DNA of 64,000 nucleotides from an uncultured Dehalococcoidia bacterium (GTDB lineage: Bacteria; Chloroflexota; Dehalococcoidia; Bin125), in contig CATQGW010000001.1 in the NCBI GenBank assembly GCA_958295515.1, positions 1,006,658-1,070,657 of the forward strand, written 5' to 3'. Of the stretch, positions 2,706 to 49,204 are shown one piece after another (position 1 is the stretch's first letter; each line of letters opens with the position of its first letter). The notes below the pieces were generated by a model. That model was not told the DNA's origin and did not search any database. It was given only the letters and a program-made list of their open reading frames with translations. The translations under genes and the position numbers were made by a program.

Positions 2706-2740
2706 GGCGAGATACCCGCGGCGGGGCGCGGGTATGACGG
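2706..2740. repeat. Palindromic hairpin element, type A: GGCGAGATACCCGCG-loop-CGCGGGTATGACGG.
   Basis: A 9-bp perfect stem ATACCCGCG/CGCGGGTAT with a 5-nt loop. The same element recurs more than 15 times in the window (3700-4510, 25240-25535, 44870-45560). Confidence 0.8.
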
Positions 2741-2776
2741 ATTCAGGGGCGCGGGTGTGGCGGATCCGGGGCTGGG

Positions 2777-3502
2777 TCAGGTGAAGAGGTGGTCGAAGGG
2801 GAGGAGTTTTGCGGCGGCGATGGCTTCCGGGGGCATTGGGGGTGGGGGGCCGGCGAGGAAGTCGGCGTTTTCTTCGAGGAATTTGACTGCCTCGGCGTAC
2901 AGTTCGGGGGAGATTTGGGAATTTTCGGTTTCGGGCGTGTTTTTCGGGTTGGGGGCGGGGTTTCTATCTGGTCGGGGCGGGTTGGGGGTGTTCGGTGTTG
3001 TTCGATCCTGTTCGGCTGTGTTCGATTGTGTTCGATCCTGTTCGATTGTGTTCGACTGTGTTCGATCCTGTTCGATGGTGTTCGATTGTGTTCGATCCGG
3101 TTCGGGGGCGGTGAGTTGGTCGTCGGGGTAGTTGAGGGTCGGCTCGGGGCGGTCGGAGAGGCTGTGTTTGTGGATTTGGTTGGCGGTCTGGCGCAGTTCG
3201 CGGCAGAGCGGGAGCAGGTCGTTGAGTTGTGAGGCGTAGCGGTAGCTTCCGTCGGGCTGGGGTTGGAGGGTGGCGGCGAGGGCGAACTGGAGGGCGGCGA
3301 GGGAGGAGAGCAGGGCGTCGTTGGCGGCCTGGCGGGTGATGTCGTGCCAGTGTTGTTCGAGCAGGCGGAGGTCTGCTTGGATGGCGGCGGGGTCGGCGTC
3401 GAGGTTGGCGGCGATGTTTTGGGTGGTGGCGCCGGCCTGGCGGAGGTAGTGGGCGCTGAGGATGCGCTGGCGTTGTTGTGGGGAGATGGTGGCGGCACTC
3501 AT
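2777..3502 (-). CDS. Hypothetical protein with an N-terminal HTH-like region and an internal DRTQSNTIEQ-type repeat. It has an inverted paralog at 62217..62894.
   Basis: A 241-aa ORF in the track. Its N-terminus, MSAATISPQQRQRILSAHYLRQAGATTQNIAANL, is ~85% identical to the 62217..62894 product. The upstream ~80 bp is also shared. The central part is encoded by 10-bp tandem DNA repeats. Confidence 0.6.
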   Translation of the reverse strand: MSAATISPQQRQRILSAHYLRQAGATTQNIAANLDADPAAIQADLRLLEQHWHDITRQAANDALLSSLAALQFALAATLQPQPDGSYRYASQLNDLLPLCRELRQTANQIHKHSLSDRPEPTLNYPDDQLTAPEPDRTQSNTIEQDRTQSNTIEQDRTQSNTAEQDRTTPNTPNPPRPDRNPAPNPKNTPETENSQISPELYAEAVKFLEENADFLAGPPPPMPPEAIAAAKLLPFDHLFT

Positions 3503-3575
3503 GTTCTGTATTGGACGCTGGTGGGGTGGGTTTTGTCAAATTGGGTGGGGTGTTGGGGGTTGCATTGGGGGGTGG
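2830..3575. repeat. Left copy of a ~740-bp inverted duplication; the partner is at ~62135..62840.
   Basis: The reverse complement of 3503-3560 (...gcaacccccaacaccccacccaatttgacaaaacccaccccaccagcgtccaatacagaacATG) is near-identical to 62150-62219. The encoded proteins align over ~200 aa and diverge only at the extreme C-terminus. Confidence 0.75.
2990..3110. repeat. About 12 tandem copies of a 10-bp unit (TGTTCGATYS) inside a coding region.
   Basis: Direct reading gives tgttcgatcc tgttcggctg tgttcgattg tgttcgatcc tgttcgattg tgttcgactg and so on. The unit length is not a multiple of 3, so three units encode one 10-aa peptide repeat. Confidence 0.85.
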
Positions 3576-3589
3576 GGGGGTGGGGCGGG

Positions 3590-4560
3590 TCGTTTTCGTC
3601 ATTCCCGCGAACGCGGGAATCTCGTGGCGTGGCTTCGGAGGTTGGGCGGGGGAGATTCCCGCTTTCGCGGGAATGACGGAAAGGGGGCTTGGGAGGCGGC
3701 ACGGCGAGATACCCGCGGCAAGCGCGGGTATGACGGATCTGTGGGCGCGGGGGTGGCGGATCTATAGGCGCGGGTGTGACGGAAAGGGGGGCAGGGCTTG
3801 GGAGGTTGCGCGGGGGGATTCCCGCGTTCGCGGGAATGACGGAAAGGAGGGGGCGGGAATGGTCGCCAAAGGGATGTGGGGATGGCGGAAGTGAGGGGGC
3901 CGGTGTGCGACGGAGGTGGGGGTGGGGCTTGGAGGGTGGGACGGCGAGATACCCGCGGCGGGGCGCGGGTATGACGGATCTATGGGTGCGGGGATGACGG
4001 AAGAGGGGGTGCGGGGTGACGGAAGTGAGAGCGGGGCTTGGGAGGTTGTGCGGGGGAGATTCCCGCTTTCGCGGGAATGACGGAATTTTGGGAGCGCTGG
4101 AGACGGTGCGGGGGCTTGGTGCTGCTCACGGCGAGATACCCGCGGCAAGCGCGGGTATGACGGATCTGTGGGTGCGGGTGTGACGGATCTACGGGGGCGG
4201 GGATGGCGGAGGTGAGGGGGCAGGTGTGCGGCGGAGGTGGGGGTGGGGCTTGGAGGGTTGGGCGGGGGGGATTCCCGCTTTCGCGGGAATGACGGAATTT
4301 TGGGAGCGCTGGAGACGGCGCGGGGGCTTGGTGCTGCTCACGGCGAGATACCCGCGGCAAGCGCGGGTATGACGGATCTATGGGCGCGGGTGTGACGGAT
4401 CTACGGGGGCGGGGATGACGGAAGTGAGGGGGCGGGTGTGTGGCGGAGGTGGGGGTGGGGCTTGGAGGGTTGGACGGCGAGATACCCGCGGCGGGGCGCG
4501 GGTATGACGGATCTATGGGGGCGGGTATGACGGAAGAGGGGCGCGGGAGTGACGGAAGAG
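3590..4560. repeat. Tandem array (~210-bp period, 4-5 units) of composite hairpin elements, type A plus type B (GATTCCCGCKTTCGCGGGAATGACGG).
   Basis: The block 4060-4270 is repeated almost exactly at 4270-4480. Each unit contains one ATTCCCGC/GCGGGAAT hairpin, one ATACCCGCG/CGCGGGTAT hairpin and G-rich spacers. The ORFs the track predicts here (3776..3997, 3980..4360 and others) are periodic artefacts. Confidence 0.85.
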
Positions 4561-15626: not shown

Positions 15627-17306
15627 ATGCGACTGTCCGGCGCTGAAATCCTGATGGAATGCCTTCGCGCGGAGGGGGTTGATGTCTTCTTCGGCTACCC
15701 CGGCGGGGTGGTGCTGCCGCTGTACCACAAGCTGGGCGCGTATCCGGATGTGAAGCACGTGCTGGTGCGGCATGAGCAGGCGGCGGCGCACGCGGCGGAC
15801 GGCTACGCGCGGGTTTCGGGGCGCACCGGCGTTTGCCTGGCGACCTCGGGACCGGGCGCGACCAACCTGGTGACCGGGATCACGACGGCGCACATGGATT
15901 CGGTGCCGATTGTGGTGATCACCGGCAACGTGGCGCGGGACCTGATTGGTCGGGACGGCTTCCAGGAGGCGGACATCACGGGGATCACGCTGCCGATCAC
16001 GAAGCACAACTATCTGCTGATGCGGGCGAGCGAGATCGCGCAGGCGGTGAAGGAGGCGTTCCACATCGCTTCGACGGGGCGCAAGGGGCCGGTGTTGGTG
16101 GATATCCCCAAGGATGTGTTCATCGAGGAGGCCGATTGGGACGGGTATCCGACCGATGTGAGCCTGCGCGGGTATCCGATTATGGATATCCCGCGCGACG
16201 ATGAGGTGGCGGTGGCGGCGGATGTGATCAACAGCGCCAAGAAGCCGATCATCATCGCGGGGCACGGGGTGGTGCAGTCGGGCGCGGCCGCGGAGCTGCG
16301 CCAGCTGGCGGAGCTGGCCGATGTGCCGGTGCTGACTACGTTGCTGGGCATCTCGGGCTTCCCCGATGATCACCCGCTGTCCTTCGGCTTTCTCGGCATG
16401 CATGGGCACTTCTACGCGAATATGGCGGCGGACCGTGCGGATGTGGTGATTGGGATTGGGATGCGCTTCGACGACCGCGCGATGGGGCGGTTCAAGGACT
16501 TCAACCCGACGGCGCGGATCGTGCATATCGACATCGACCCGGCCGAGATCGGCAAGAATTTCCACACGCATGCGCCGGTCAACGGGGATGTGCGGGAGAC
16601 GCTGCTGCGTCTGCTGCCGCGGCTCGAACCGGTCTCGCACCCGCAGTGGCGGGCCGAGATTGAGGCGATTAAGGCGGATCACCCGACCAACTACATCGAC
16701 GAGGGCACTGCGGTGACCGGTCCCTGGCTGGTGCAGGCGCTGGCGGAGGAGACGGAAGGGCAAGCGACGGTGGTGACCGGGGTTGGCCAGCACCAGATGT
16801 GGGGGGCGCAGTATTACCCGTACACGCGGCCGCGGCAGTGGGTGACCTCGGGCGGGTTGGGCACGATGGGTTATGAGGTGCCGGCGGCGATGGGGGCGCA
16901 GTTCGCGCAGCAGGAGCCGGTCTGGTCGATCTGCGGCGACGGCGGGTTCCAGATGACCTCGCAGGAGCTGCAGACGGTGCGGGAGCACGACCTGCCGGTG
17001 CGCTTTGCAATCTTCAACAACGGCTTCCTCGGTATGGTGCGGCAGTGGCAGGAGCTGTTCTACGAGAACAACTACCACTCGGTGGATATCGGCCAGCCGG
17101 ACTTCGTGAAGCTGGCGGAGGCCTACGGCATCCCCGGGCTGCGGGCGACGACGCGCGCGGAGGCGCGGCAGGTGATTCGGGAGGCGGAGGCGCTCGATGG
17201 GCCGGTCGTGATCGACTTCCAGCTGGAGCCGGAAGAGAATGTGTGGCCGATGGTGCCCGCGGGGGCGGCGCTCTCGGAGACGATCGAATCCGCTGAAGAC
17301 CTGTAG
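15627..17306 (+). CDS. ilvB: Acetolactate synthase large subunit.
   Basis: 559 aa with a ThDP-enzyme fold (GYPGG, ...GMHG..., GLGTMGY). Confidence 0.9.
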   Translation: MRLSGAEILMECLRAEGVDVFFGYPGGVVLPLYHKLGAYPDVKHVLVRHEQAAAHAADGYARVSGRTGVCLATSGPGATNLVTGITTAHMDSVPIVVITGNVARDLIGRDGFQEADITGITLPITKHNYLLMRASEIAQAVKEAFHIASTGRKGPVLVDIPKDVFIEEADWDGYPTDVSLRGYPIMDIPRDDEVAVAADVINSAKKPIIIAGHGVVQSGAAAELRQLAELADVPVLTTLLGISGFPDDHPLSFGFLGMHGHFYANMAADRADVVIGIGMRFDDRAMGRFKDFNPTARIVHIDIDPAEIGKNFHTHAPVNGDVRETLLRLLPRLEPVSHPQWRAEIEAIKADHPTNYIDEGTAVTGPWLVQALAEETEGQATVVTGVGQHQMWGAQYYPYTRPRQWVTSGGLGTMGYEVPAAMGAQFAQQEPVWSICGDGGFQMTSQELQTVREHDLPVRFAIFNNGFLGMVRQWQELFYENNYHSVDIGQPDFVKLAEAYGIPGLRATTRAEARQVIREAEALDGPVVIDFQLEPEENVWPMVPAGAALSETIESAEDL

Positions 17307-17366
17307 GCAGACCTGTCGGCAGACCTATAGGCAGGCTTGTAAGCAGGAAGTGGGGAGCGTATCGAG

Positions 17367-18017: not shown

Positions 18018-19022
18018 ATGCCCGCCACGATGTACTACGACGACGATGCCGATCTGGATTTGCTGAAGGGCAAGACGATTGGGGTGGTGGGCTTCGGCTC
18101 GCAGGGCCACGCGCACGCGCTCAACCTGCACGACAGCGGGGTGGACGTGATTGTGGGTCTCTACCCGGGCTCGCGCTCGTGGAACAAGGTGATCGATTCG
18201 GGGCTGCGGGTGGACACGGTGGCGAATGTGGCGGACGCCTCGGACATCATCATGGTGTTGACGCCGGACCACATTCAGAAGCAGATTTACGATCAGCACA
18301 TCGCGCCCTCGATGGTGGAGGGCAAGACGCTGATGTTCGCGCACGGCTTCGCGATTCACTACAACCAGGTCGCGCCGCCGCCGGAGGTGGATGTGACCAT
18401 GATTGCGCCCAAGGGTCCGGGCCATCTGGTGCGGCGGGTCTTCGAGGAAGGCGGCGGGGTGCCGGCGCTGTTGGCGATTTACCAGGACGCCTCGGAGACG
18501 GCGAAGGATGTGGCGCTGGCCTACGCGAAGGGGATCGGGGGCACGCGCGCGGGGGTGCTGGAGACGACATTCCTGGAGGAGACGGAGACGGATTTGTTCG
18601 GCGAGCAGTCGGTGCTCTGCGGCGGCGTGACGTCGCTGATGCAGGCGGCGTTCGAGACGCTCGTGGAGGCCGGCTACCAGCCCGAATCGGCGTACTTTGA
18701 GACGATTCACGAGGTGAAGCTGATCGTGGATTTGATCTACGAAGGCGGCTTCGCCAACATGCGCTACTCGGTGTCGGACACGGCGGAGTACGGCGATCTG
18801 ACGCGCGGGCCGCGGGTGATCGACGCGTCGGTGAAGGACCGGATGCGGCAGCTGCTGAGCGACATTCAGGACGGGACGTTCGCGCGGGAGTGGATCATGG
18901 AGAATCAGACGGGGCGTCCGGGCTTCGACAAGCTGCGCGCGCGCGCGGCGGCGCATCCGAGCGAAGAGGTGGGCGCGGAGCTGCGCGGGATGATGGCCTG
19001 GCTCAACGAGGAAGCGGACTAG
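18018..19022 (+). CDS. ilvC: Ketol-acid reductoisomerase.
   Basis: 334 aa. N-terminal Rossmann motif ([17 protein letters not shown]) plus the KARI C-terminal domain. Confidence 0.9.
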
Positions 19023-19555
19023 TCGGAGACGGCGGCCAGGAGCTCCTCCTCCGTAGGTTGCTCCAACTCGATCAGCGCGGACTGGTACGGGATGGCTTCC
19101 CCGTCATCAGTTCCGATCCATCCGGGATGCTGATGCGAGAGGTCGCTCAGCTCGCGCGCGCTCAGGTCTTGCGCCTCGCGGAGGATTTGCTCGACGACAG
19201 CGATCTCGACTCCACTGAAGGGCGAAAGGTCCGGCCGCTCGAGCGGCACCGGGCGCTGCTGCACGTAGCCGAAGCGGTCGCGATGGCGGATGATCAACCG
19301 CTGAGCATCGGCCAGGCTGGTGAGCCGCTGCTCCAGACTGGCGGCCATAGGGCCGTGCTTGCGATGCACGTACGTTGTGCCCGTGATCGATTCGCCGGTG
19401 AGGCGGTAATGTTGAAAGTCGCTCATCCAGAGCAACTTGTGCAGCTTGGTCTTGCCGTAGGTCTCGCTGGCGAGCTCACGCTCGGAGATGTAGAGAATCA
19501 ACTCATCGAGCTTGGCGGCGTTGAGAGTCGGTTGAGGTGCGGCGGCCATCGACAT
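19019..19555 (-). CDS. Panacea-domain (DUF4065, SocA-like) antitoxin-type protein.
   Basis: 178 aa. The core [35 protein letters not shown] resembles the Panacea/DUF4065 signature. Local GC (~62%) is lower than the flanks. Confidence 0.55.
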
Positions 19556-19641
19556 CGTCCCTCGGCGGTTTGGTCACTGACGTTGTAGGGCTACGACATA
19601 GCTTAGCGTTGCCTGATGCGGCTTGCGTGTAATGTGGGGCT

Positions 19642-22648: not shown

Positions 22649-23895
22649 CAGATAATGCCTCTCTCGCGCAGCGCGGTGAGTTCGTCGGCGCTCAGCCCGA
22701 GTTCGCCCCAGACTTCGTCGTTGTGTTGACCGAGCCGCGGGGGTGGGCGGTCGTCCCAGCGCTGGGGCGCGCCGTCGATGCGAATTTGCAGCGGCGCGGC
22801 GGGCAGGCGCAGGCTGCGGCCGTCGTCGAGCGTGAATTCGCGCCAGAAACCGCGCGCGTCGAGCTGGCGGCTCTCGGCCAGGTCGGCGATGTTCAGGACC
22901 GGCACCAGGAGCAAGTCGTAGGCGATTGAGACGTCCAGCATTTCGCGCTTGGTTTTGCCGCGCACGTGCGCCTGCATGACCTCCTGGATGCGCGGCAGCA
23001 GATCGGGGTCGGCTGCGCCGGCCGCGAGACGGTCCGGATAGGTGACGAAGTTCTCCTCGGCCAGCTCGGCTTCGAGGACGCCCTCATCGATTAGCCAGCG
23101 GACGGCGTGGTTGACGAAGTGCCCGACGGCGGGGCCGGGCGCGAGCGCGAGGACGATCCAGCCGTCTTCGACTTCGCGGGTGCCGCGGAAGCCGACGCCG
23201 CGCGCTTTGACGCCGCCGGCGTAGCGCTCCGGCTCGACGGCGCCGAGCGAATGCGCGAGCACCTGTCCGAGCGTGGCCTGGGCGGCGGAGACCTGGGCGG
23301 AGATATCGACGTGCTGCCCGCGTCCGGTCGCGCGGCGCGCGTGCAGCGCCAGCATTGCGCCGCCCGCGGCGTCGCCGGCGGCGTGCGACCAGGACTGCGG
23401 GACGGAGATGCGCACGGGCGGTCGGTCGTCGTCGCCGCTCATCAGCAGCGGCGTGCCGGCCGCCCAGATGACCAGGTCGGTGGCCTGGTAGCGGGCTTTG
23501 GGGCCGGTTTGGCCGAAGGCGGTGATCGAGGTGTAGATCAGCTGCGGGAAGTCGTCTTTGAGCTGCTGGTAGCCGAGGCCGAGCGCGGCCATCGCGCCGG
23601 GGTCGGCGGATTCGAGCAGGATGTCGGCGCTGTCCAGTAGGCGGCGCAGCAGGGTGCGCCCGTCGGAGTGCTCGATGTCGCAGGTGATGCCGCGCTTGTT
23701 GCGGGTGTAGGCGGTCCAGAAGATGGAGCGCTCGGTTTCGGGCGCGTCGCCGCCGAAGAAGGGCGCGACGCGGCGTCCGCGCGAGCCTGCGGGCGGCTCG
23801 ACCTGGATGACGTCTGCGCCGAGGTCGGCCAGCATCTGTCCGGCGAGCACGCCGCGTTGGTCGGTGAGGTCGAGGACGCGCAGATGGTTGAGCAC
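22648..23895 (-). CDS. CoA-transferase family III (CaiB/BaiF-like).
   Basis: Starts MLNHLRVLDLTDQRGVLAGQMLADLGADVIQVEPP. Confidence 0.8.
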   Translation of the reverse strand: MLNHLRVLDLTDQRGVLAGQMLADLGADVIQVEPPAGSRGRRVAPFFGGDAPETERSIFWTAYTRNKRGITCDIEHSDGRTLLRRLLDSADILLESADPGAMAALGLGYQQLKDDFPQLIYTSITAFGQTGPKARYQATDLVIWAAGTPLLMSGDDDRPPVRISVPQSWSHAAGDAAGGAMLALHARRATGRGQHVDISAQVSAAQATLGQVLAHSLGAVEPERYAGGVKARGVGFRGTREVEDGWIVLALAPGPAVGHFVNHAVRWLIDEGVLEAELAEENFVTYPDRLAAGAADPDLLPRIQEVMQAHVRGKTKREMLDVSIAYDLLLVPVLNIADLAESRQLDARGFWREFTLDDGRSLRLPAAPLQIRIDGAPQRWDDRPPPRLGQHNDEVWGELGLSADELTALRERGII

Positions 23896-23958
23896 GGGGG
23901 CAGGCTAGCGGTGCGGCGCGCTTCGGCGTTAGCGGGTGGGCGGCGTATCGTGGCATCT

Positions 23959-25188
23959 ATGCCACTGGAAGTCGGACACGACGGCAATCGGGTGATGCTG
24001 CGGGGGGCGCTGCGCCGCTTTGATGAGCTGCGGGTGGTCAGCGCGGCGCTGTTCGACGCGATCGGGCGGCGCGGGCAGCGCGCGGTGACGCTCGATTTCT
24101 CGGCGTGCGAGGAGTTCTCGCCGGCGACGATGTTGCCGCTGCTGCCGGTCGCGGCGGGGTACCGCGAGGTCTCGGGCGCGACGTTCGAGCTGGTGGCGCC
24201 GGAAGACGAGGGGTTGAAGCGGCTGCTGATCGACTCGAATTGGGCGCACTTCATCGATCCTGAGCGGTATGCGATCAATGAGGAGGCCGGTGGGCAGGTT
24301 CCGGCGCAGCGGTTTGGGGCGGAGACGGAGGTGGGAGCGATCGTGGCGGGCGTGATGGAGCTGCTGCTGCCGAGGATGGACGTTGAGCGCGAGGCGCTCG
24401 CGGCGCTGGAATGGTCGATGTATGAGTTGATGGACAATGTGCTCTGCCACGCGGAGTCGCCGACGGGCGGGTTTGCGCAGGCGAGCGTTGATGCGCAGTC
24501 GGGGTGGGTGGAATTCGTTGTGGCGGACGGCGGGATCGGCGTCGCGGAGAGTATGCGCATTCGCGATCACGAGCAGGCGCTGGGGCGGGCGATCGCTGAG
24601 GGCGGGACGCGGGACCGAGCGGCGCACGCGGGCGATGGGCTGTTTGGGGCGTTCCGCGCGGCGACGCTGTCGGGCGGTCAGTTTGAGATCAACTCCGGGT
24701 TCGGGCTGCTCTATGGATCGCGCGAGGGTCCTGAGGAGTACCGGACCGGCAAGCGGCGGATTCGCTATAGCGGCACGGCGGTGCGCTGCGAGGTGGGCGT
24801 CGGCGATGCGGGATTGCTGGGGCGCGCGCTGGCGTTCTGCGATCGGGCGTATGAGCCGTTGGACGAGTCTGCTCAGCGAGGGAGCGGGGCGGGGGAGGTC
24901 GCTCCGTTCTCGATTCGGGAGGAGGCGGCGCAGGATGTCGGCTCGAGATCGGGCGGGCGGCGGGTGCGGGAGCTGGTGGAGGAGCGTTTGCGCCGGGATG
25001 GTGAGGCGGTACTGGACTTTGGCGGTGTTGCGGTGATTTCGAGCGGCTTCGCGGATGAGGTGTTGGGGCGGTTGTTTGCGGGGATGGGTCCGCGCGCGTT
25101 TATGAGTCGGGTTCGGGTGCGTAATGCGAATGTTGTGATCGAGGCTCTGATCGACCGCGCGATCCTACAGCGCACGCGCGCCGGGTAG
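23959..25188 (+). CDS. GHKL-ATPase (HATPase_c)-like protein with a C-terminal STAS-like domain; a putative anti-sigma-type serine kinase or regulator.
   Basis: The central segment EWSMYELMDNVLCHA...GWVEFVVADGGIGV fits the HATPase_c N- and G1-boxes. The C-terminus DFGGVAVISSGFADEVLGRLF is STAS-like. Track ORF 23668 starts upstream in a junk prefix; I chose the ATG at 23959. Confidence 0.4.
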   Translation: MPLEVGHDGNRVMLRGALRRFDELRVVSAALFDAIGRRGQRAVTLDFSACEEFSPATMLPLLPVAAGYREVSGATFELVAPEDEGLKRLLIDSNWAHFIDPERYAINEEAGGQVPAQRFGAETEVGAIVAGVMELLLPRMDVEREALAALEWSMYELMDNVLCHAESPTGGFAQASVDAQSGWVEFVVADGGIGVAESMRIRDHEQALGRAIAEGGTRDRAAHAGDGLFGAFRAATLSGGQFEINSGFGLLYGSREGPEEYRTGKRRIRYSGTAVRCEVGVGDAGLLGRALAFCDRAYEPLDESAQRGSGAGEVAPFSIREEAAQDVGSRSGGRRVRELVEERLRRDGEAVLDFGGVAVISSGFADEVLGRLFAGMGPRAFMSRVRVRNANVVIEALIDRAILQRTRAG

Positions 25189-25199: not shown

Positions 25200-25545
25200 T
25201 TTCAGCGCTGAGTTTGTCACGGCTGTTGGTGCTGGTCACGGCGAGATACCCGCGGCAAGCGCGGGTATGACGGTGGTGGGGGCGCGGGTATGACGGTGGG
25301 TTCGACACGGATGTTGGCGCTGGTCAGGGCGAGATACCCGCGGCAAGCGCGGGTATGACGGTGGTTGGGGCACGGGTGTGGCGGTGGGTTCGACACGGAT
25401 GTTGGCGCTGGTCAGGGCGAGATACCCGCGGCAAGCGCGGGTATGACGGTGGTAGGGGTGCGGGCGTGGTGGTGGGTTCGACACGGATGTTGGTGCTGGT
25501 CAGGGCGAGATACCCGCGGCAAGCGCGGGTATGACGGTGGTGGGG
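25200..25545. repeat. Four tandem copies of a ~90-bp unit containing the type A hairpin.
   Basis: The unit ttcgacacggatgttggcgctggtcagggcgagatacccgcggcaagcgcgggtatgacggtgg... repeats at 25240, 25330, 25420 and 25505. Confidence 0.85.
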
Positions 25546-26210
25546 GCGCGAGTGCGGAGCGGAGCGCTGCTTCGACGTCGGATTCTTCGAGATCGAAGTC
25601 GGAGGCGATGAAGGCGATCGATTCGTCGGCGCGCCAGCGCTTGACGATGGTTTCGAGCAGGAGGGCCGCGGTTGAGGAAGGTGACCGCGCCGCCGGCGAA
25701 GCGCGGATCGATCATCAGCGGCGCGCTGTCGCCGGCTGGGAAGAGGCGCCGCGCCCATGTGCCCGCTGCGGCATTCTGAGCGCAATCGTCGTACTCGATC
25801 GCGCGTGTCGCGAGCTCGGCGAACTTGGGCAGGGGCGGCAGTGATGTCGGCCATTCGTCATCGTGGCCAGGGCTGCTCGCGTTGGAGTCGCCGCAGCCCA
25901 GCGTGTTCAATCTGAGTTCGGCGAAGGGATGCTCAACTCCCCAGCGCTCGCGGGCGAACTCGCGGCTTTGGCGAAGCTGCTCGACGCTGAGTCCGCAGGC
26001 GCGGAGGCGGCGCGCGACGATCAGCTCGACGAGTTCGAGGAACGAGAGGTGGAACGTTGCCTGGTCCGGGCGGCGATCGGCGAATAGCGGCGGCGCGGCG
26101 CGGTGGCCGCGAAACCAGCGGACGACGGTGGCGGTCGTCGTCTCTGCGAGGCGGGCGGCTTCGGCTGTCGTGTACAGCGATGTCGTGCGGGCGTCGTTGG
26201 GCGATCTCAT
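25500..26210 (-). pseudogene. MerR/excisionase-type HTH fused to DUF433, interrupted by a -1 frameshift near 25665.
   Basis: Frame 1 gives MRSPNDARTTSLYTTAEAARLAETTTATVVRWF...IDPRFAGGAVTFLNRG and then nonsense. A second frame continues LLETIVKRWRADESIAFIASDFDLEESDVEAALRS, which is the DUF433 C-terminal signature. Both frames terminate inside the 90-bp repeat array. Confidence 0.5.
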
Positions 26211-27190: not shown

Positions 27191-27998
27191 GTGAGTTCAT
27201 CCGTTCGTTTTACCCCCCCCCCCACAGGGACGTGCCGCCGCCAACAGCGCACGGTCTCCGCTGCGGTATCCGGGCGGGAAGTCGCGGGCGGTCAAGCACA
27301 TTCGCCCGCACATCCCCGCGAATGTCGGGCAGCTCTGTGCGCCGTTCCTGGGCGGCGCGAGCGTTGAGCTTGCGTGCGCCGCTGAGGGGATCGTCGTTCA
27401 CGGCTCCGACGCATTCGAGCCGCTGGTCAACTTCTGGCGCTTCGCGCTGACCGATGCCGGTCGCCTCGTTGAGCGAGTGCGGGATCATCACCCGTTGTTG
27501 AAGAGCGGGTTCTACAACCTACAGCGGAGTTACCATAACTTGACTGACCCGCTCGAACGGGCGGCGGTCTTCTTCGCGCTCAATCGATCTTCGTTTTCCG
27601 GGACGACGCTGTCAGGCGGTATGTCGCCGGGGCATCCGAGGTTCACGCCCGCGGCGATCACGCGCCTGGAGCAGTTTGCGAACGACGGTTTGTGCGTCGA
27701 GCACCTCGACTATCGAGAGGCGCTGACTCGCCATCCGAACGAATTTCTGTACCTGGATCCTCCTTACGCGAACGGGCAGCGCTTGTATGGCGACAGAGGC
27801 GACATGCACGGGAGCGTTGATCACCGCGAGCTGGCGGCGATGTTGTACCGACGCAGCGGATGGGTGCTGAGCTACAACGACTGCGCCGAGATACGCGAGC
27901 TGTATCGCGGCTACCGCATCATCGAACCGGGCTGGGCGTACGGCATGTCGGGGGAAGGCCGCCTGCGCTCGCGGGAATTGCTGATCATCGATGCCTAG
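27191..27998 (+). pseudogene. Dam-class (alpha, D12) N6-adenine DNA methyltransferase, out of frame at an 11-C homopolymer. It is a phase-OFF or frameshifted allele.
   Basis: GAAGGAGAG lies 6 nt before the GTG at 27191. The GTG frame runs through the C tract and stops at ~27360. A different frame encodes SPLRYPGGKSRAVKHIRPHIPANVGQLCAPFLGGASVEL (Dam motifs X and I) through to FLYLDPPYA (motif IV) and the stop at 27998. That frame has no start codon after its in-frame TGA at 27192 until the internal GTG at 27477. Removing one C joins the GTG frame to the Dam frame and gives a ~269-aa product. Confidence 0.7.
27213..27223. repeat. Homopolymeric C11 tract. On the minus strand it reads G11-TAAAAC.
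   Basis: Direct count across ...cgttttaCCCCCCCCCCCacaggg... Confidence 0.9.
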
Positions 27999-28854
27999 TC
28001 AAGCAGAGAGCGGCAAGGCGTGGGAATATGGACTTGCCCGCCGTCTGGGGCGGATGAACGGAGTGTCCATCCTCTCGAGCAATGCGCCGCTGGCAGCGCT
28101 CAAGGCGTATCATCAGTACGGCGAGCAGGCTCGAGCTGAGATCGAACGCGCTGCGGTTGCTGCCGCGAACTTCCTCGAAGCCCACGACGATCGTTTCGGG
28201 GAACTGGCGAACCTTGAGCTCCAGAGTGATCAGCGCGGTAGAGACGGCGATGTGCGCGACATTCTGGCGGCGACGCAAAGCGGCGACGTGATTGGCATTT
28301 CGGCGAAGCATCGACATCGAGCGCTCAAGCACTCGCGGCTGTCGGACAGCATCGACTTCGGCCTCGAGTGGTACGGCCGGCCTTGCTCGGCAACCTATTG
28401 GGCGCGCGTCAAGCCGGTGTTCGGCAGTCTTCGGCGTGTCAACGTCGGATACTGGCGTGAGTTGCCCGACAAGCATGACGGATATTACCGGCCGGTGTTG
28501 ACAGCGTTCATGGACGAGGTGCGGACCAATGCCGATGCGGCGCGGCTGCTGCGCTACGTCGTCGGGCGCTACGATTTCTACAAGGTGATCAAGTCGAACG
28601 GCGACATCGAGATTCAGTCGTTCAACCTCAGCGGCAGCCTGCAGTGGGGAGCCAAGTTGCCGATGCCGACTCGGATCGTTGAATTTCGACGGGAAACGGA
28701 TCGAGTCGGGACCGCTGAGCTGACGCTTGATCAAGGATGGCAGTTGTCGTTTCGCCTGCACAACGCCAATGCTGCGATCGAGCCGTCGCTCAAGTTCGAT
28801 ATCCAGTTGGTCGGGAGTCCGGAGGAGATGGGCAACTACACCACCGCCTATTGA
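27991..28854 (+). CDS. Putative type II restriction endonuclease partner of the Dam-class MTase, family unknown.
   Basis: 287-aa ORF whose ATG lies inside the MTase stop (ATGCCTAG). Coding-like composition and ~60% GC. A possible variant nuclease motif is GDVRD...GDVIGISAKH. The role is inferred from position only. Confidence 0.4.
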   Translation: MPSQAESGKAWEYGLARRLGRMNGVSILSSNAPLAALKAYHQYGEQARAEIERAAVAAANFLEAHDDRFGELANLELQSDQRGRDGDVRDILAATQSGDVIGISAKHRHRALKHSRLSDSIDFGLEWYGRPCSATYWARVKPVFGSLRRVNVGYWRELPDKHDGYYRPVLTAFMDEVRTNADAARLLRYVVGRYDFYKVIKSNGDIEIQSFNLSGSLQWGAKLPMPTRIVEFRRETDRVGTAELTLDQGWQLSFRLHNANAAIEPSLKFDIQLVGSPEEMGNYTTAY

Positions 28855-31787: not shown

Positions 31788-32369
31788 TTGGCAGGGCGCG
31801 GCGGTGCGGGTATAACCCTGGGCGTGGATACGAAGAGCGGGCGACGCCGCGCAGACGGCAACGCGGACGAGATCGCGGCGCTGCTCGGCGACGAGCGGGC
31901 GGTGTCGCGCGAGGCGGGCGCGCGTCGGGCGGCGCGCGACGGCTCGGCGCGGCACCTGCGAACGCTCAACGAGCTGGCGCTCGGCGATCCGTCGCAGCGG
32001 GTGCGGCGCGAGGCGGCGGCCTCGATTGGCCGCATCGCGGCCGAGCTGCCGGAGGCGTTTGCGATGCTGGCGGGGCTGGCCGAGCACACGGATCCGGGGG
32101 TGGTGCTGCAGGCCGCGCGTGGGCTGATGCGCAGCGGTCGGGGCTGCACACAGCGGGCGATCGCCGAACCGCTGCTGGATCGCCTCGCGGCGCATCCCAA
32201 CGAGGTCGTGCGCGACTTCGTGGCGGTCGAGCGGGGGCGCGCAGCCCGCGGTCATAACGCGCGTGCGGGGGGGGGGGGGGGTAAAAGCGCACCGCGACGC
32301 GCCGGCCTGGCTGGAGAATCGACTGGTGCAGGGCGACGCGCTCGAGCTGCTGCGGCGCTTGCCCGATGA
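31788..32369 (+). CDS. HEAT / PBS-lyase repeat protein. The C-terminal tail beyond the G tract is probably not native.
   Basis: TTG start. Repeats present: DPSQRVRREAAASIGRI, DPGVVLQAARGL and HPNEVVRDFVA. The reading frame passes through the G15 tract, encoding GGGGG. Confidence 0.45.
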   Translation: MAGRGGAGITLGVDTKSGRRRADGNADEIAALLGDERAVSREAGARRAARDGSARHLRTLNELALGDPSQRVRREAAASIGRIAAELPEAFAMLAGLAEHTDPGVVLQAARGLMRSGRGCTQRAIAEPLLDRLAAHPNEVVRDFVAVERGRAARGHNARAGGGGGKSAPRRAGLAGESTGAGRRARAAAALAR

Positions 32370-33132
32370 CAGCATTCACCTGACGTTCACGTCGCCGCCC
32401 TACTACAACGCGCGTGATTACTCGGTCTACGAGTCCTACGAGGCTTACCTCGACTTTCTGGAATCGGTCTTCGCCGAGCTGCACCGCGTCACCAAAGAGG
32501 GGCGCTTTCTGGTGGTCAACACCTCGCCGGTGATCGTGCCGCGCGCGGGGCGGCAGCATGAGAGTCACCGCTTCGCGATTCCGTTCGACCTGCACCCGCG
32601 GCTGACGGCGCAGGGCTGGCGGTTCATCGACGACATCATCTGGCGCAAGCCGGACGGGGCGGCGAAGCCGCGCAATTCGGGCTTTGCGTCGCACCGCCAG
32701 CCGCTGACCTGGAAGGCGAATGCGGTGACGGAGTATGTGATGGTCTACCGCAAGCGGTCGGCGCGGCTGATCGACTGGAATCTGCGGCAGTACCCGGCGG
32801 ATGTGCGCGAGGCGAGCCGCGCGCCGGACGACTATGAAACGAGCAATGTGTGGGAGATTGATCCCGCCGTTGATCGGGTGCATAGCGCGGTGTTTCCTGC
32901 GGCGCTGTGCGAGCGGGTGATCGCGTATTACTCGATGGTGGGGGACCTGATTTTCGATCCGTTCGCGGGCAGCGGAACGGTGGGGGTGGCGGCGCTGAAG
33001 CTGGAGCGGCGGGCGCTGCTGGCGGAGATCGATGATCGGTATGTGCAGCGGATTCAGAACCGCGTCGGTATGCAAATGCGCGCCTGCACGATCGAACAGT
33101 TATTGGAGGGGCGCGATGCGTCTGAGTCCTGA
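32263..33132 (+). CDS. Beta-class DNA methyltransferase (motif IV SPPY before motif I), probably N4-cytosine specific.
   Basis: The motif order is NRLVQGDALELLRRLPDDSIHLTFTSPPYYN and then FDPFAGSGTVGVAA. The annotated start is the GTG 4 nt before the G tract. An alternative start is the GTG at ~32326, which has a GGAGA RBS. Confidence 0.75.
   Translation: MRGGGGVKAHRDAPAWLENRLVQGDALELLRRLPDDSIHLTFTSPPYYNARDYSVYESYEAYLDFLESVFAELHRVTKEGRFLVVNTSPVIVPRAGRQHESHRFAIPFDLHPRLTAQGWRFIDDIIWRKPDGAAKPRNSGFASHRQPLTWKANAVTEYVMVYRKRSARLIDWNLRQYPADVREASRAPDDYETSNVWEIDPAVDRVHSAVFPAALCERVIAYYSMVGDLIFDPFAGSGTVGVAALKLERRALLAEIDDRYVQRIQNRVGMQMRACTIEQLLEGRDASES
32267..32281. repeat. Homopolymeric G tract of ~15 nt, followed by TAAAAG.
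   Basis: Read directly. The tract length of 15 is the one consistent with both track ORF frames (HEAT ...ARAGGGGGK and MTase MRGGGGVK). Confidence 0.85.
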
Positions 33133-34030
33133 CGGCCTGCGGCACGCGATTCGCTGCCTGATCCGCGACGGCCAGAGCCATCGGCAGGCGATTTTCGAGG
33201 AGATCAACCGCGAATTCGTGCGCCATGCGGTTGAGTTTTTCACCGAGGTCGCGCACGCCAAGCTGAAGGGCGAAGACCTGGCGGCCTCCGAGGACTGGTA
33301 CGAACGGCAGCTGCTGCGCAGCGGCCGATACAGCAAGGAAGAGATCGCTGTTCACGCCGGCATTCCGATGAAAACGATCGAGAACATTCACGAGTCGACC
33401 AGCTCCAATGTGGTGCTCGACGCCAGCTTGCAGAATCATCAGGCGCTGCGGCGGACGATCGAAGAGGTTCTCGCCGCCGGGGAGGGTCCCTCGATCACGT
33501 TGACGATCAAGCTGCGCGGCGTTGGGGTGGATCTCAGCCTCGATGAGAGTCTGATCGTAATCAATTCATTGGCGGTCAAGCGCGAGCGGATTCGCGGCGG
33601 GATGTGGTCCACAGCGGGCAAGCAGGTTGAGGTGCCGCTGATGGCGACGCTCTGTCTGCTGCACGGTGTGGATGATCGCTTCTGGCGGATCGCCAAGCCT
33701 GACGAGTATCCGCATCAGATTGATTTCGTGTTGCAGAGCCACGGAAAGCAGTATCTCTGCGAAGTGAAGCTGATGGGCAAGGGGAACCCGGAAAGCGCCA
33801 AGGCTGCGCACGCGCACAATGCCAATCTGTTGGTCGCCGACCGCCTCTCGGAGCAGGCGAAGCAATCGTTGAGCAAGAACAATGTCGAGTGGGTAGAGCT
33901 GGCGGCAGCGTCGGGCTACCGGCGGTTCGGCGTTGTGCTGGACCGGTTCAACATTGAGCGAGGGGAAGCGGCTGATCTCGAGGGGTTGGATGAGATCATT
34001 GAGCGCGCCATTGAGCGCACGGCTCGCTGA
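33116..34030 (+). CDS. Putative type II restriction endonuclease of the PD-(D/E)XK class.
   Basis: Its ATG overlaps the MTase 3' end by 17 nt. The motif ...HQIDFVLQSHGKQYLCEVKLMG fits D-x13-E-x-K. Local GC is ~60%. Confidence 0.5.
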   Translation: MRLSPDGLRHAIRCLIRDGQSHRQAIFEEINREFVRHAVEFFTEVAHAKLKGEDLAASEDWYERQLLRSGRYSKEEIAVHAGIPMKTIENIHESTSSNVVLDASLQNHQALRRTIEEVLAAGEGPSITLTIKLRGVGVDLSLDESLIVINSLAVKRERIRGGMWSTAGKQVEVPLMATLCLLHGVDDRFWRIAKPDEYPHQIDFVLQSHGKQYLCEVKLMGKGNPESAKAAHAHNANLLVADRLSEQAKQSLSKNNVEWVELAAASGYRRFGVVLDRFNIERGEAADLEGLDEIIERAIERTAR

Positions 34031-34154
34031 GGCGGTGGTGGGATGTTCCGTCGTGCGGCTGTTGGGAGGGAGGCTTTGGCGGGGCTGTGGAGGTTGAATC
34101 CACAACATCCGCGCTTGTTTGCTTGTAGGGTATGCGGCGCACTTGGGAGAGGGA

Positions 34155-40102: not shown

Positions 40103-40357
40103 GTGTTGATCCCGGTCACGCTCCGCACGCTCAGCGGCGGCGAGGCCGAGATTGAGGCTGTCGGACATAATCTGCGCAGTGTGATCGCGGATCTGGGCGA
40201 GCGTTACCCGGAGCTTGCCGGGCGTTTGGTGCAGGATGGCCGTATCGGCCGCGGCCTGACGCTCGCGATCAACGGGGATGTGGTGAGTACGGGCCTGATC
40301 ACCAAGGTGCCGGCGGATGCGGAGATTGCGATTGTGCCGCAGATTAGTGGGGGCTAG
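40103..40357 (+). CDS. MoaD/ThiS-like ubiquitin-fold sulfur-carrier protein ending in Gly-Gly.
   Basis: GTG start. ~84 aa ending ...AEIAIVPQISGG. Its last ~40 bp are duplicated at 42283..42323. Confidence 0.6.
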   Translation: MLIPVTLRTLSGGEAEIEAVGHNLRSVIADLGERYPELAGRLVQDGRIGRGLTLAINGDVVSTGLITKVPADAEIAIVPQISGG

Positions 40358-44739: not shown

Positions 44740-45645
44740 CCCCCGTGATTCCCGCTCGGGGGCGGGAATGACGGAAAAGAGGAGTCGGAGGTTGAACGGC
44801 GAGATACCCGCGCTCCTCCGCCGTCATTGCCGCGCCCCGCCGCGGCAATCTCGCCGAGTTCAACACGGATGTTGGTGCAGGTCACGGCGAGATACCCGCG
44901 GCAAGCGCGGGTATGACGGAGTGTGTGTGGCGGGTGTGTGACGGAGCGGGCGGGTGTGTGACGGAATTGGTGGGCGGGAATGACGGAAAAGGGGAGTGGG
45001 AGGTTGAACGGGGAGATACCCGCGCTCCTCCTCCGTCATTGCCGCGTTCCGCCGCGGCAATCTCGCTGCGTTCAACACGGATGTTGGTGCAGGTCGCGGC
45101 GAGATACCCGCGGCAAGCGCGGGTATGACGGAGTGTGTGGCGGGTGTGTGACGGAGCGGGCGGGTGTGTGACGGAATTGGTGGGCGGGAATGACGGGAAG
45201 GGGGGGTCGGAGGTTGAACGGCGAGATACCCGCGCTCCTCCTCCGTCATTGCCGCGCCCCGCCGCGGCAATCTCGCTGCGTTCAACACGGATGTTGGTGC
45301 AGGTCACGGCGAGATACCCGCGGCAAGCGCGGGTATGACGGAGTGTGTGGCGGGTGTGTGACGGAGCGGGCGAGTGTGTGACGGAATTGGCGGGCGGGAA
45401 TGACGGAAAAGGGGGGTCGGAGGTTGAACGGCGAGATACCCGCGCTCCTCCTCCGTCATTGCCGCGTTCCGCCACGGCAATCTCGCTGCGTTCAACACGG
45501 ATGTTGGTGCAGGTCACGGCGAGATACCCGCGGCAAGCGCGGGTATGACGGAGTGTGTGGCGGGTGTGTGACGGAGCGGTCGGGTGTGTGACGGAATTGG
45601 TGGGCGGGAATGACGGAACTTGAGGTGGGCGGGGATGACGGAGGT
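44740..45645. repeat. Tandem array (4 copies of ~210 bp) of nested palindromes: type B, type C (ATTGCCGCG-N6-CGCGGCAAT) and type A.
   Basis: The unit ggttgaacggcgagatacccgcgctcctcc...gtcattgccgcg...cgcggcaatctcgc...gttcaacacggatgttggtgcaggtcacggcgagatacccgcggcaagcgcgggtatgacgg... repeats every 210 bp. The track ORFs here are offset by exactly 210. Confidence 0.9.
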
Positions 45646-48859: not shown

Positions 48860-49204
48860 TCACTCTTCGAGCAAGATCGAGACGGACTCGATGAAGTCCA
48901 TGTCGTCGTCGGCATGCGGACTTTCGTTGATTGCCTTCGCCTGCCGCCGCATTTCCTCGGCGAAATGCGGCGAGCTCGGGTCCGGCGTCCGGACCAGCTC
49001 GGGATGCATCGCGCGCTCGCGCGTCTGACCGCAGTCAGGGCAGTCCGCGATTTCTTGCGCCCGGCGGCGCGCCTCGGCAATGAATTCAGGGTCACTCGTG
49101 TCCGGCAGCCAGAGCACGACAGGCACCAGCCCCTGCGCGCGCATCTCCTTGTGCTCTTCGCTCTCCGGGTCAAGCGCTGTGTAGGGATCGCGTGCTGCCG
49201 GCAT
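48860..49204 (-). CDS. DUF3018-like (MazE-type) antitoxin homolog, second copy.
   Basis: Contains ...MRAQGLVPVVLWLPDTSDPEFIAEARRRAQEIA...DMDFIESVS, similar to the 49702..49926 product. ~58% GC. Confidence 0.45.
   Translation of the reverse strand: MPAARDPYTALDPESEEHKEMRAQGLVPVVLWLPDTSDPEFIAEARRRAQEIADCPDCGQTRERAMHPELVRTPDPSSPHFAEEMRRQAKAINESPHADDDMDFIESVSILLEE

Follow-up and report, generated by a model that had tools for sequence, protein, structure and literature searches.

The tandem hairpin arrays in the 64-kb stretch of DNA analysed here (referred to as the window) are genuine clusters of a known class of repeats, the CGTC-tagged REPs of the Neisseria dRS3/NTS type. The system itself is thus already known, and what is new is its host, the chromosome of an uncultured member of the Chloroflexota, and the arrangement of the repeats. 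The same elements have been described as hairpins of single-stranded DNA under the name of Ssn-related motifs (SRM) by Chenal et al. (2025, PMC11893778). Taking all evidence together we consider it probable that the repeats are CGTC REPs or SRMs cut by the nuclease Ssn, that the ssn gene lies elsewhere in the genome, and that a composite unit was copied and amplified into semi-selfish arrays that modulate recombination.

With the search pattern CGTCATWSCCGCN{2,8}GCGGSWAT, 26 exact matches to a tagged hairpin were obtained in the window, versus none in all 100 dinucleotide-preserving shuffles. They are found at six separate intergenic sites, of which three are tandem arrays (periods 212, 210 and 88 bp) and the other three are small. 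The hairpins belong to three families, all of which had been named in the initial annotation, as had the arrays at three places. Type A, with the stem ATACCCGCG/CGCGGGTAT, accounts for 14 complete hairpins and type B, ATTCCCGC(G)/(C)GCGGGAAT, for nine, while type C, ATTGCCGCG/CGCGGCAAT, is represented by three perfect hairpins and one decayed copy at 45453. In types A and C the stem (ATACCCGCG or ATTGCCGCG) is 9 bp long and encloses a loop of 5-6 nt, and type B has the 8-bp stem ATTCCCGC with a GAAC or GAAA loop that is extended to 6 nt in two copies. All 26 hairpins have CGTC on one strand, where it directly adjoins the stem on the 5' side, and the conserved tail reads CTC(GCC) or CCCC. Each full hairpin is accompanied on its tag side by one to three half-sites, consisting of the tag and the proximal arm only, with a period of 20-23 nt. 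The six sites are:

2712-2763, minus strand: small site, a lone type A hairpin (2712-2739) with one half-site (2751-2763)
3597-4560, minus strand: array 1, ten complete CGTC-tagged hairpins and about 11 half-sites of tag plus arm
25205-25556, minus strand: array 3, four 88-bp units, 92-95% alike
44743-45645, minus strand: array 2, 4.1 units of 210 bp, 95-97% alike
52555-52680, both strands: small site, a tags-outside inverted type B pair (52555-52582 with CGTC on the plus strand, 52613-52638 with CGTC on the minus strand) and two half-sites (52648-52680)
62082-62130, plus strand: small site, a half-site (62082-62094) and the type B hairpin CGTCATTCCCGCGAAAGCGGGAATCC at 62103

The solitary copies reported earlier correspond to the sites at 2712, in the interval from the metH start (2638) to the stop of a gene for a 241-aa protein (2777), at 52555/52613, where the copy is an inverted pair, and at 62103. 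The last of these sits at the edge of a 646-nt inverted duplication (2974-3619/62100-62745).

Array 1 fills the intergenic space between the stop of a minus-strand ORF (4570) and the start of the minus-strand 241-aa gene (3502). Types B (ATTCCCGC) and A (ATACCCGCG) alternate in units of 134-240 bp with a mutual likeness of 53-80%, and CGTC is located on the plus strand at 3597-3624 only and on the minus strand in the nine hairpins at 3655, 3709, 3818, 3949, 4059, 4136, 4271, 4348 and 4482. The plus strand is G-rich here (GC skew +0.48). Tandem Repeats Finder delimits a region of 3961-4489 (period 212, 2.5 copies, 89% matches), which is the better-preserved part of an array that is itself more decayed across 3597-4560. 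Array 2 (44760-45618 in the same program, period 210, 4.1 copies, 95% matches) lies between two convergent genes, for an IMPase (stop 44723) and an F420-dependent LLM oxidoreductase (stop 45659). It contains a type B hairpin with a 6-nt loop at 44748, and its unit is a tags-outside pair of type C (CGTC on the plus strand; 44822, 45034, 45244 and the decayed copy) and type A (CGTC on the minus strand; 44892, 45104, 45314, 45524), separated by a 42-nt spacer and followed in every case by three half-sites. Array 3 (25218-25554, period 88, 3.8 copies, 93% matches) is situated between convergent ORFs, past the stop of the plus-strand gene 23668-25188, and its unit comprises the subterminal stretch CACGGATGTTGGCGCTGGTCAGGGCGAG, a type A hairpin, GACGG and one half-site. 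The motif ATGACGG(A) that had been described behind each hairpin is only in part a flanking element: GACGG, which reads CCGTC on the other strand, is a conserved, unpaired flank of the hairpins, but AT is the last pair of the stem.

Type C hairpins are oriented opposite to their neighbours, and each forms a tags-outside (HH) inverted pair with the next type A hairpin. HH pairs occur at 3597/3655, at 44822/44892 and likewise in every unit of array 2, and at 52555/52613, and they are the most frequent arrangement in the loci of sister metagenome-assembled genomes (MAGs) as well. Such pairs can fold into a single long hairpin. The nested outer palindrome of the earlier description was recovered as GTTGAACGGCGAGAT...ATCTCGCCGAGTTCAAC at 44792-44864. 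Note that the palindrome GTTGAAC...GTTCAAC is merely the outer portion of an inverted hairpin pair.

Two other types of repeat array were ruled out. As had been recognised before, the arrays are not CRISPR: the whole 88-212-bp unit, including the DNA between hairpins that would have to serve as spacers, is itself repeated (92-97% in arrays 2 and 3), and Pfam scans of the window ORFs revealed no Cas family. Integron attC cassette arrays were dismissed on the basis that the window holds no integrase family and the units contain no ORF. Transposase genes were likewise not found in the window. The 241-aa gene (2777-3502) was considered as a repeat-associated gene and discarded, as it does not recur near the repeats in other loci; it has no Pfam or NCBIfam match. 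Hairpins lie on either side of this gene, and a paralogue in inverted orientation is located at 62217-62894.

The assignment to a class rests on the CGTC-tagged REP superfamily with its families CGTC-1 to CGTC-4, as defined by Di Nocera, De Gregorio and Rocco (2013, PMC3733652). There, an unpaired CGTC (or TGTC/CCTC) tag is located at one end of a stem-loop whose 8- or 9-bp stem starts with AT and whose loop comprises 4 or 5 nt. A short tail, CCA in most cases, likewise stays unpaired, and the repeats are high-copy, extragenic and predominantly arranged as HH dimers (PMC3733652). In the window the tag is CGTC in 26 of 26 cases, the stems of 8-9 bp start from AT and enclose loops of 4-6 nt, and the HH dimers are extragenic, within the six intergenic sites. 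The initial annotation had called the elements REP/BIME-like, and this holds true in the form of the CGTC class. Its view of the tandem arrangement as unusual was overstated, however, as large clusters of this class are known from the Neisseria NIMEs and from Wolbachia (PMC3733652) and as sister Dehalococcoidia MAGs contain similar arrays with periods of 111-198 bp. In a gonococcal locus used for comparison, 11 dRS3 copies are spread over 2.7 kb with a period of about 252 bp. Neither is the hairpin family a private duplication, since the same hairpins are present in more than 25 Dehalococcoidia/Chloroflexota MAGs; the ATTCCCGC form is also found in many other phyla.

The published SRM search pattern is HGTCWYN(0-2)YYVSBRHN(0-5)WNVSBRGN(0-2)RNCYNB (PMC11893778). 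It is matched by seven type B copies with a 3-nt loop, versus approximately one match per shuffle, and the type B copy at 62103 shares all of its 26 nt with an NTS copy of Neisseria gonorrhoeae (L206). Types A and C and the type B copies with a 6-nt loop fail at the W that precedes the 3' arm. Types A and C may represent Ssn specificities outside the published motif.

REP-like hairpins raise the question of the enzyme that acts on them. Following the initial annotation, the repeats might be classical REP/BIME elements mobilised by a RAYT, a Y1 transposase of the IS200/IS605 type. They do resemble such elements, being short, extragenic and GC-rich hairpins that carry an unpaired tag and occur as inverted pairs and clusters, and the GTAG and CGTC classes are treated as sister superfamilies (PMC3733652). 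Their tag is CGTC, however, and not GTAG, and for CGTC repeats a lack of association with tyrosine transposases has been reported (PMC3733652). A search for an IS200/IS605-like RAYT was fruitless: phmmer with E. coli RayT at E<=10, a single-sequence query that is weak when taken alone, retrieved nothing among the 5627 stop-to-stop ORFs of the window and 114 repeat-centred loci (0.9 Mb), and no Y1_Tnp was found in Pfam scans of all window ORFs. What the hairpins do enclose is a gene for a GIY-YIG nuclease. On these grounds taken together, we regard mobilisation by a RAYT as highly improbable.

This nuclease, Ssn, is a single-domain GIY-YIG protein of about 95 aa that binds and cuts SRM hairpins (PMC11893778). 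The Neisseria and Wolbachia enzymes bind the hairpin sequence-specifically when the CGTC strand is single-stranded, and nick it a few nucleotides away from the tag on its 5' side; neither the complementary strand nor duplex DNA or RNA is accepted as a substrate (PMC11893778). That the ssDNA form is bound and cleaved in a strand-specific manner has been demonstrated for three Neisseria species and Wolbachia only, and natural competence is the sole process shown to be affected by Ssn (PMC11893778). The link of GIY-YIG nuclease and hairpin is hence already published (Chenal et al. 2025, PMC11893778), and it was re-derived independently here. Clustering of the ORFs from the 114 repeat-centred loci led to a GIY-YIG family of about 96 aa in six loci from different phyla, closely flanked by hairpins in four of the six. 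In the reverse test, 80 metagenomic loci were selected solely by their Ssn-like protein, and the density of tagged perfect hairpins was 2.86 per kb at distances of up to 200 nt from the gene versus 0.064 per kb elsewhere, an approximately 45-fold difference. These loci hold 105 hairpins, compared to 0-4 in shuffles, and 28 of the 80 have them on both sides of the gene. Cultured examples, each with its own stem variant, are N. gonorrhoeae, Azospirillum lipoferum and Sinorhizobium meliloti, and the CCA tail is present in metagenomic and cultured Ssn-associated examples.

In the relatives of the window (L201-L205 and L092), CGTC-ATACCCGCG-loop-CGCGGGTAT, the exact type A hairpin of the window, is found on both sides of an ssn homologue, with a subterminal stretch that resembles the one in the window arrays. 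As far as seen, this homologue is single-copy at its locus in close relatives. Its protein is 48% identical to the gonococcal SsnA orthologue (E 3e-32), and the residues that correspond to Y6, Y17 and E64 do not vary. A paralogue of ssn in L210 is surrounded by type B hairpins, with half-site runs outside them, and a second one in L209 by another variant, ATTCCAGCG. No ssn gene is located within the 64-kb window, and from the relatives we infer that one or more are encoded elsewhere in the genome. As the paralogues are bracketed by type A, type B or the ATTCCAGCG variant, the sequence data fit a situation in which more than one nuclease specificity would serve the three co-resident hairpin families.

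The proximity of gene and repeats could also arise if ssn were a homing-type selfish gene that targets pre-existing hairpins, in the way IS110/IS1111 elements target REPs, with the repeats spreading by host processes unrelated to Ssn. The gene does sit within one tags-outside pair or is framed by two of them, at times in odd locations (in A. lipoferum it separates sufB from sufC), and its orientation differs between two related genomes, the inversion having its breakpoints within hairpins. On the other hand, the chloroflexotal ssn is syntenic, with an identical protein encoded on 12 contigs at the same M17-peptidase/rpsO locus, the hairpin variants are specific to the individual nuclease lineages, and ssn is present in 81% of the genomes that contain more than 200 SRMs (PMC11893778). 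Because of this synteny, the lineage-specific variants and the co-occurrence, we hold the homing scenario to be improbable. The evidence argues for a stable partnership of nuclease and repeat, in which either partner might drive the spread.

Alternatively, the hairpins might act at the level of RNA, as terminators, stabilisers of mRNA 3' ends or a structured-RNA array, functions that had been suggested in part at the outset. Every site is intergenic, mostly downstream of genes or between convergent genes, the stems are stable, and REPs in E. coli stabilise the mRNA upstream of them, which provides a precedent. However, none of the hairpins coincides with a terminator-like site with a T-tract, scanning the window for Rfam families and tRNAs returned no match, and arrays 1 and 3 are oppositely oriented with respect to the upstream gene. 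Orientation instead follows the strand-wide GC skew: in 24 of 27 loci of this clade, the CGTC of unpaired hairpins lies on whichever strand is C-rich locally. Neisseria SsnA, furthermore, does not bind the RNA form (PMC11893778). A role in RNA thus seems distinctly unlikely as the primary one, and the hairpins may have a secondary effect on transcripts.

Under the preferred reading, a CGTC REP cut by Ssn, and by analogy with the characterised enzymes, a hairpin would be bound once its CGTC strand becomes single-stranded and would then be nicked 5' of the tag. In the cell, the arrays would serve as putative ssDNA cut marks on incoming DNA or on replication and repair intermediates, and cutting would thereby modulate recombination around the genes they flank. 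They may at the same time be semi-selfish repeats tied to a nuclease, as REPINs are to RAYTs. The C-rich strand is presumably the one that is not exposed on the lagging-strand template, and one to six iterated half-sites precede the hairpins, at the predicted cut side of Ssn. Strand-specific insertion or counter-selection of self-cleavage, together with slippage during cut and repair, could generate the strand bias and the half-site runs. A bolder proposal, which we put forward tentatively and with considerable doubt, is that arrays, half-site runs and strand bias are all footprints of Ssn acting on the ssDNA of the chromosome itself, and that SRM and Ssn form an intragenomic replicator resembling REPIN-RAYT with a GIY-YIG enzyme. 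In the publications consulted we have not found a description of the half-site runs, of the two variants that fail the SRM pattern or of the strand bias.

As for the history of the arrays, a composite unit of about 210 bp, consisting of a hairpin, a half-site run, a second hairpin or inverted pair and the subterminal stretch, would have been copied to several intergenic sites, where unequal recombination or slippage from one repeat to another would subsequently have multiplied it into arrays of the NIME/BIME type. Local amplification is suggested by the high likeness of units within arrays 2 and 3 (92-97%) as opposed to that between arrays 1 and 2 (only 54-65%, though these are colinear), by the arrays in sister MAGs and by the distribution of array 2. 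This array is missing from the orthologous gene junction in relatives (78-86% LLM identity) and is therefore lineage-specific; the closest short-read relative, L200, ends 16 nt past the LLM stop and is uninformative in this respect.

These results place the Ssn/SRM system in marine or sponge-type Chloroflexota, where it appears to be dense, with 26 hairpins in 64 kb, and one genome can hold at least three hairpin variants in regular composite arrays. Natural candidate pairs of enzyme and site emerge, in which proteins of the L092/L201, L210 and L209 types go with ATACCCGCG, ATTCCCGCG and ATTCCAGCG, respectively, and these could add to the site-specific ssDNA nucleases available as tools. Strand bias and half-site runs, provided that complete genomes confirm them, bear on whether Ssn spreads the repeats or only uses them. 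For annotation, the arrays account for assembly breaks and for spurious 'AGMT/GNDG'-type ORFs in such MAGs.

Compared to the CGTC REP superfamily, the window shares the tag, stem, loop, presence of an unpaired tail and HH dimers, as well as the location between unidirectional or convergent genes. It differs in that the Chloroflexi are absent from the five phyla listed for CGTC repeats (PMC3733652), in the tail, CTC(GCC) rather than CCA, and in the dominance of head-to-tail tandems, which were negligible in that survey. With the SRMs and the NTS-SsnA pair of Neisseria (PMC11893778) it has in common the CGTC-AT orientation of the hairpin, an apparently high copy number, the intergenic position and clustering around genes, a type B sequence equal to NTS over 26 nt and, in the relatives of the window, a nuclease of about 96 aa that keeps the catalytic Tyr/Tyr/Glu and is bracketed by the same hairpins. 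In contrast, the host is an uncultured Dehalococcoidia-like member of the Chloroflexota, unmentioned in the text of PMC11893778, the dominant 9-bp stems (ATACCCGCG, ATTGCCGCG) with loops of 5-6 nt lie outside the degenerate pattern, the tail is CTCGCC instead of CYRG/CCA, the window lacks the nuclease gene, and the repeats build regular tandem arrays of a composite unit with half-site runs. NIMEs, which are RS units flanked by dRS3, and BIME-2 of E. coli likewise are tandem intergenic composites of oriented hairpins and linkers, but differ in unit composition and host, and BIME-2 consists of GTAG-type REPs linked to a RAYT. The REPIN-RAYT system (Bertels and Rainey), finally, also features inverted hairpin pairs able to fold into one long hairpin, a nuclease gene at one conserved locus flanked by its own repeats, and lineage-specific repeat populations. 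It is set apart by a different tag and by an HUH-Y1 enzyme in place of the GIY-YIG fold, and mobilisation driven by Ssn is putative.

The tandem hairpin arrays are real, and the sequence agrees with their description in the initial annotation at 3590-4560, 25200-25555 and 44740-45645. Tandem Repeats Finder delimits the arrays as follows, and hairpins also stand at smaller sites:

3961-4489: array 1, period 212 bp, 2.5 copies, 89% matches
25218-25554: array 3, period 88 bp, 3.8 copies, 93% matches
44760-45618: array 2, period 210 bp, 4.1 copies, 95% matches
2712: single hairpin
52555/52613: inverted hairpin pair
62103: single hairpin

The pattern CGTCATWSCCGCN{2,8}GCGGSWAT has 26 matches on the two strands of the window, and 0 in each of 100 dinucleotide-preserving shuffles. 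All hairpin sites are intergenic, in a window of 67.6% G+C with the gene content of an ordinary chromosome (metH, leuB, ilvBNC, fab genes, nhaA, short-chain dehydrogenases, CoA-transferases). The element is asymmetric: on one strand CCGTC precedes a stem-loop whose stem starts with AT, and the returning arm is followed by a short tail, here CTC and often CTCGCC. Three stem families occur:

Type A: stem ATACCCGCG, 9 bp, loop 5-6 nt
Type B: stem ATTCCCGC, 8 bp, loop 4 nt (6 nt in two copies)
Type C: stem ATTGCCGCG, 9 bp, loop 6 nt

Type C and the next type A are placed head-to-head, tags outside, with a spacer of 42 nt, and as single-stranded DNA the pair is predicted to fold into one long hairpin (z-score -5.9 for the CGTC-rich strand of an array-2 unit). 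Nearly all full hairpins are accompanied, on their tag side, by one to three half-sites, consisting of tag and proximal arm (e.g. CCGTCACACCCGC), with a period of 20-23 nt. The window contains 45 solo half-sites (≤2 substitutions) against a shuffle background of about 17; some 31 of them lie within or adjoining arrays, and these share the orientation of their hairpin in all cases. Strand asymmetry of the arrays is strong: the strand complementary to the CGTC tag has a GC skew of +0.27 to +0.48. Likeness between units reaches 95-97% in array 2 and 92-95% in array 3; array 1 is older, with units that are 53-80% alike and 134-240 bp long. Although colinear, the units of array 1 and those of array 2 are only 54-65% alike; given this divergence and the likeness within arrays, a composite unit of about 210 bp appears to have reached separate sites and then been amplified in place. 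Array 2 is lineage-specific; at the corresponding convergent junction of F420-dependent LLM oxidoreductase and IMPase genes in relatives (LLM oxidoreductase 86% and 78% identical) no hairpin is present, and the junction measures 26 bp or the genes overlap.

Other repeats and genes of the window deserve mention. Two paralogous genes, 2777-3502 (-, 241 aa) and 62217-62894 (+, 225 aa), are inverted and 58 kb apart; their products have no match in Pfam or NCBIfam, and each gene contains 10-bp/30-bp tandem repeats coding several times for the decapeptide EQDRTQSNTI. An inverted repeat, 2974-3619 / 62100-62745, is 83% alike over 646 nt, with a type-B hairpin exactly at its boundary on each side. RCC1-repeat paralogues at 34119-36206 (+) and 60224-62056 (+) each comprise about 12 tandem 111-bp (37-aa) repeats, 75-85% alike, and have a 75% identical homologue in another Dehalococcoidia MAG (L031). 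At 17297-17346, where the genes for the large and small subunits of acetolactate synthase meet, the 12-bp AGACCTGTAGGC is repeated 4.2 times in tandem. The interval between arrays 3 and 2 is rich in defence genes (27195-28854, 32128-34030, 40348-42246), encoding a Dam-type methylase with a HaeIII-like endonuclease, an N6/N4 methylase with a CfrBI-like endonuclease, and a GmrSD type IV enzyme. The neighbour of a conserved FIST gene differs in relatives (SNF2-type helicase), suggesting that this stretch is a variable island. Outside the interval lie a MazEF pair (48860-49701) and a SocA/Panacea antitoxin (19019-19573).

A scan with the exact hairpin pattern, one genome per species and the window's own genome not among the loci, yielded at least 114 loci, about two thirds of those listed being Dehalococcoidia/Chloroflexota MAGs, including SAR202 and sponge-derived bins. 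The remaining listed loci carry the ATTCCCGC form only and belong to Alpha-, Beta- and Gammaproteobacteria, Bacteroidota and others. A private duplication was rejected on the basis of this spread across Dehalococcoidia/Chloroflexota MAGs and other phyla. The commonest arrangement among the listed loci is the tags-outside inverted pair, 56-68 nt apart, and tandem arrays are present in other Dehalococcoidia MAGs as well:

L004: period 111 bp, 9.5 copies
L073: period 198 bp, 4.8 copies
L100: period 131 bp, 4.8 copies
L100, second array: period 152 bp, 3.4 copies
L002: period 135 bp, 2.6 copies

Note that one hairpin (L199 8018-8045, CGTCATTCCCGCGAAGGCGGGAATGACG) bears a CGTC tag on both strands and could be a substrate on either.

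The initial annotation had placed the arrays as REP/BIME-like, correctly so, as they belong to the CGTC-tagged REP class. Judged by sequence, the hairpins match the features of these repeats: the tag is CGTC, the 8-9-bp stem begins with AT, the loop has 4-5 nt, dimers mostly have their tags outside, and there is a short tail, mostly CCA in that class and CTC or CCCC in the window (Di Nocera et al. 2013, PMC3733652). In that work family CGTC-1 is the Neisseria dRS3, large clusters are noted in Neisseria and Wolbachia, five host phyla are listed, Chloroflexi not among them, and a dedicated transposase was not found. The proposal of a RAYT partner did not hold; a search with E. coli RayT over 5627 ORFs (window plus 114 loci) gave no match. 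Likewise, T tracts expected of terminators are absent at the hairpins, and no known RNA family is found in the window. The proteins of the 64-kb window include no transposase, integrase or Cas protein; CRISPR had rightly been dismissed, the whole unit of arrays 2 and 3, DNA between the hairpins included, being repeated at 92-97% identity, and an integron was also rejected for want of an integrase and of ORFs in the units.

Unbiased ORF clustering of the window and the 114 loci pointed to another candidate partner, a GIY-YIG family of about 96 aa with members at six loci in unrelated taxa; hairpins closely flank four of these. In the reverse test, an alignment of the six proteins was used to pick 80 metagenomic loci by protein similarity alone, and 46 of these contain perfect CGTC-tagged hairpins. 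Within 200 nt of the gene a hairpin is found upstream in 37, downstream in 37 and on both sides in 28 of the 80. Near the gene there are 2.86 hairpins per kb, against 0.064 per kb in the remainder of these loci, and 105 hairpins compare with 0-4 in shuffles. The usual layout is CGTC-hairpin, 10-25 nt, ORF, 8-25 nt, hairpin-GACG, with CCA as the far-side tail; stems agree across the two sides of one gene and vary between loci. As evidenced by tblastn on annotated replicons, the gene is present in taxa known for CGTC repeats, each with its own hairpin variant:

N. gonorrhoeae (L206, NZ_CP119142.1): within a dense dRS3 cluster
Azospirillum lipoferum 4B plasmid AZO_p3 (L207 1091-1599): annotated 'GIY-YIG nuclease family protein', between sufB and sufC in the suf operon, inverted hairpin pairs on both sides
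S. meliloti: between gltA and lpxB

The association of such hairpins with the nuclease had been reported before (Chenal et al. 2025, PMC11893778). SsnA, a 94-aa GIY-YIG protein of family cd10448, binds oriented dRS3 (Neisseria Transformation Sequence, NTS, CGTCATTCCCGCGMAVGCGGGAATCYRG) exclusively in single-stranded form and on this strand alone, and cleaves a few nucleotides upstream of it. It acts on neither duplex DNA nor RNA, and it reduces transformation by NTS-bearing DNA about five-fold; 71% of ssn homologues are flanked by Ssn-related motifs (SRMs), and a RAYT-like domestication was considered (PMC11893778). Note that NZ_CP119142.1 (2.17 Mb) is a plasmid entry in PLSDB but evidently a chromosome, and that its SsnA orthologue, without listed annotation, has an apparent non-ATG start codon (ATT/ATA) if 94 aa as published.

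The 64-kb window encodes no Ssn-like protein. In Chloroflexota relatives the GIY-YIG proteins form a clade at least 76% identical to one another; the protein is 48% identical to the gonococcal SsnA orthologue (E 3e-32), keeps the equivalents of Y6, Y17 and E64, and has the UPF0213 proteins 1zg2 and 1ywl as nearest solved structures. An identical protein is found on 12 contigs at one locus, between an M17 peptidase gene and rpsO. The exact type-A hairpin of the window brackets the gene in L092 and L201-L205, and the stretch gttcgtgctggacgcggcgag before the right-hand hairpin there resembles gttggtgctggtcacggcgag before type-A hairpins of arrays 2 and 3. Between two related genomes the ssn cassette of about 550 bp is inverted (L202 1280-1865 vs L203 1283-1865), with breakpoints inside the flanking hairpins and common genes on either side (M17 peptidase/FeThRed_B and rpsO/pnp). 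At the M17 peptidase/rpsO locus of another genome, a 60%-identical paralogue has type-B hairpins on both sides and, beyond them, runs of 3-6 half-sites, and one MAG has a second paralogue with a ATTCCAGCG variant. The published degenerate SRM pattern matches seven short-loop type-B copies (about one match per shuffle) and misses type A, type C and 6-nt-loop type B, each at a single position. Because type A brackets the ssn homologue in L092 and L201-L205, it would nevertheless qualify as an SRM by the functional criterion; a type-C hairpin adjoins the cassette in L202.

With repeats and surroundings masked and residual GC skew taken per Chloroflexota locus, most loci have CGTC on their C-rich strand, a proxy-based count on non-independent 8-kb samples (30 C-rich to 6 G-rich with a 150-nt mask and skew threshold 0.03, p 7e-5; 24 to 3 with 500 nt and 0.05, p 5e-5; 16 to 2 with 800 nt and 0.08, p 1.3e-3). 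The skew of the window holds irrespective of gene orientation (+0.11 over plus-strand, +0.20 over minus-strand genes) and therefore probably reflects the replication strand. From this proxy, the lagging-strand template may be kept free of the cleavable strand, or insertion itself may be strand-specific. Along the window the skew is unusually strong; it declines steadily, starting at +0.35 on the left and reaching about 0 beyond 56 kb, and the cumulative skew flattens toward the right end. The skew may therefore turn, possibly at the replication terminus, close to the right edge or shortly past it.

The hairpin-nuclease system is thus the one already known as Ssn/SRM, and the hairpin with outer half-site run at the ends of the type-B-bracketed paralogue is the architecture of the window. 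The half-site runs, on the predicted Ssn cut side, and what appear to be multiple nuclease paralogues that share a genome but differ in their hairpin variant, are not described in PMC11893778 or PMC3733652, and the text of PMC11893778 does not mention replication strand or skew. The novelty lies in the host lineage and the hairpin variants, in composite arrays of regular build that carry runs of half-sites and, possibly, in a replication-strand bias.
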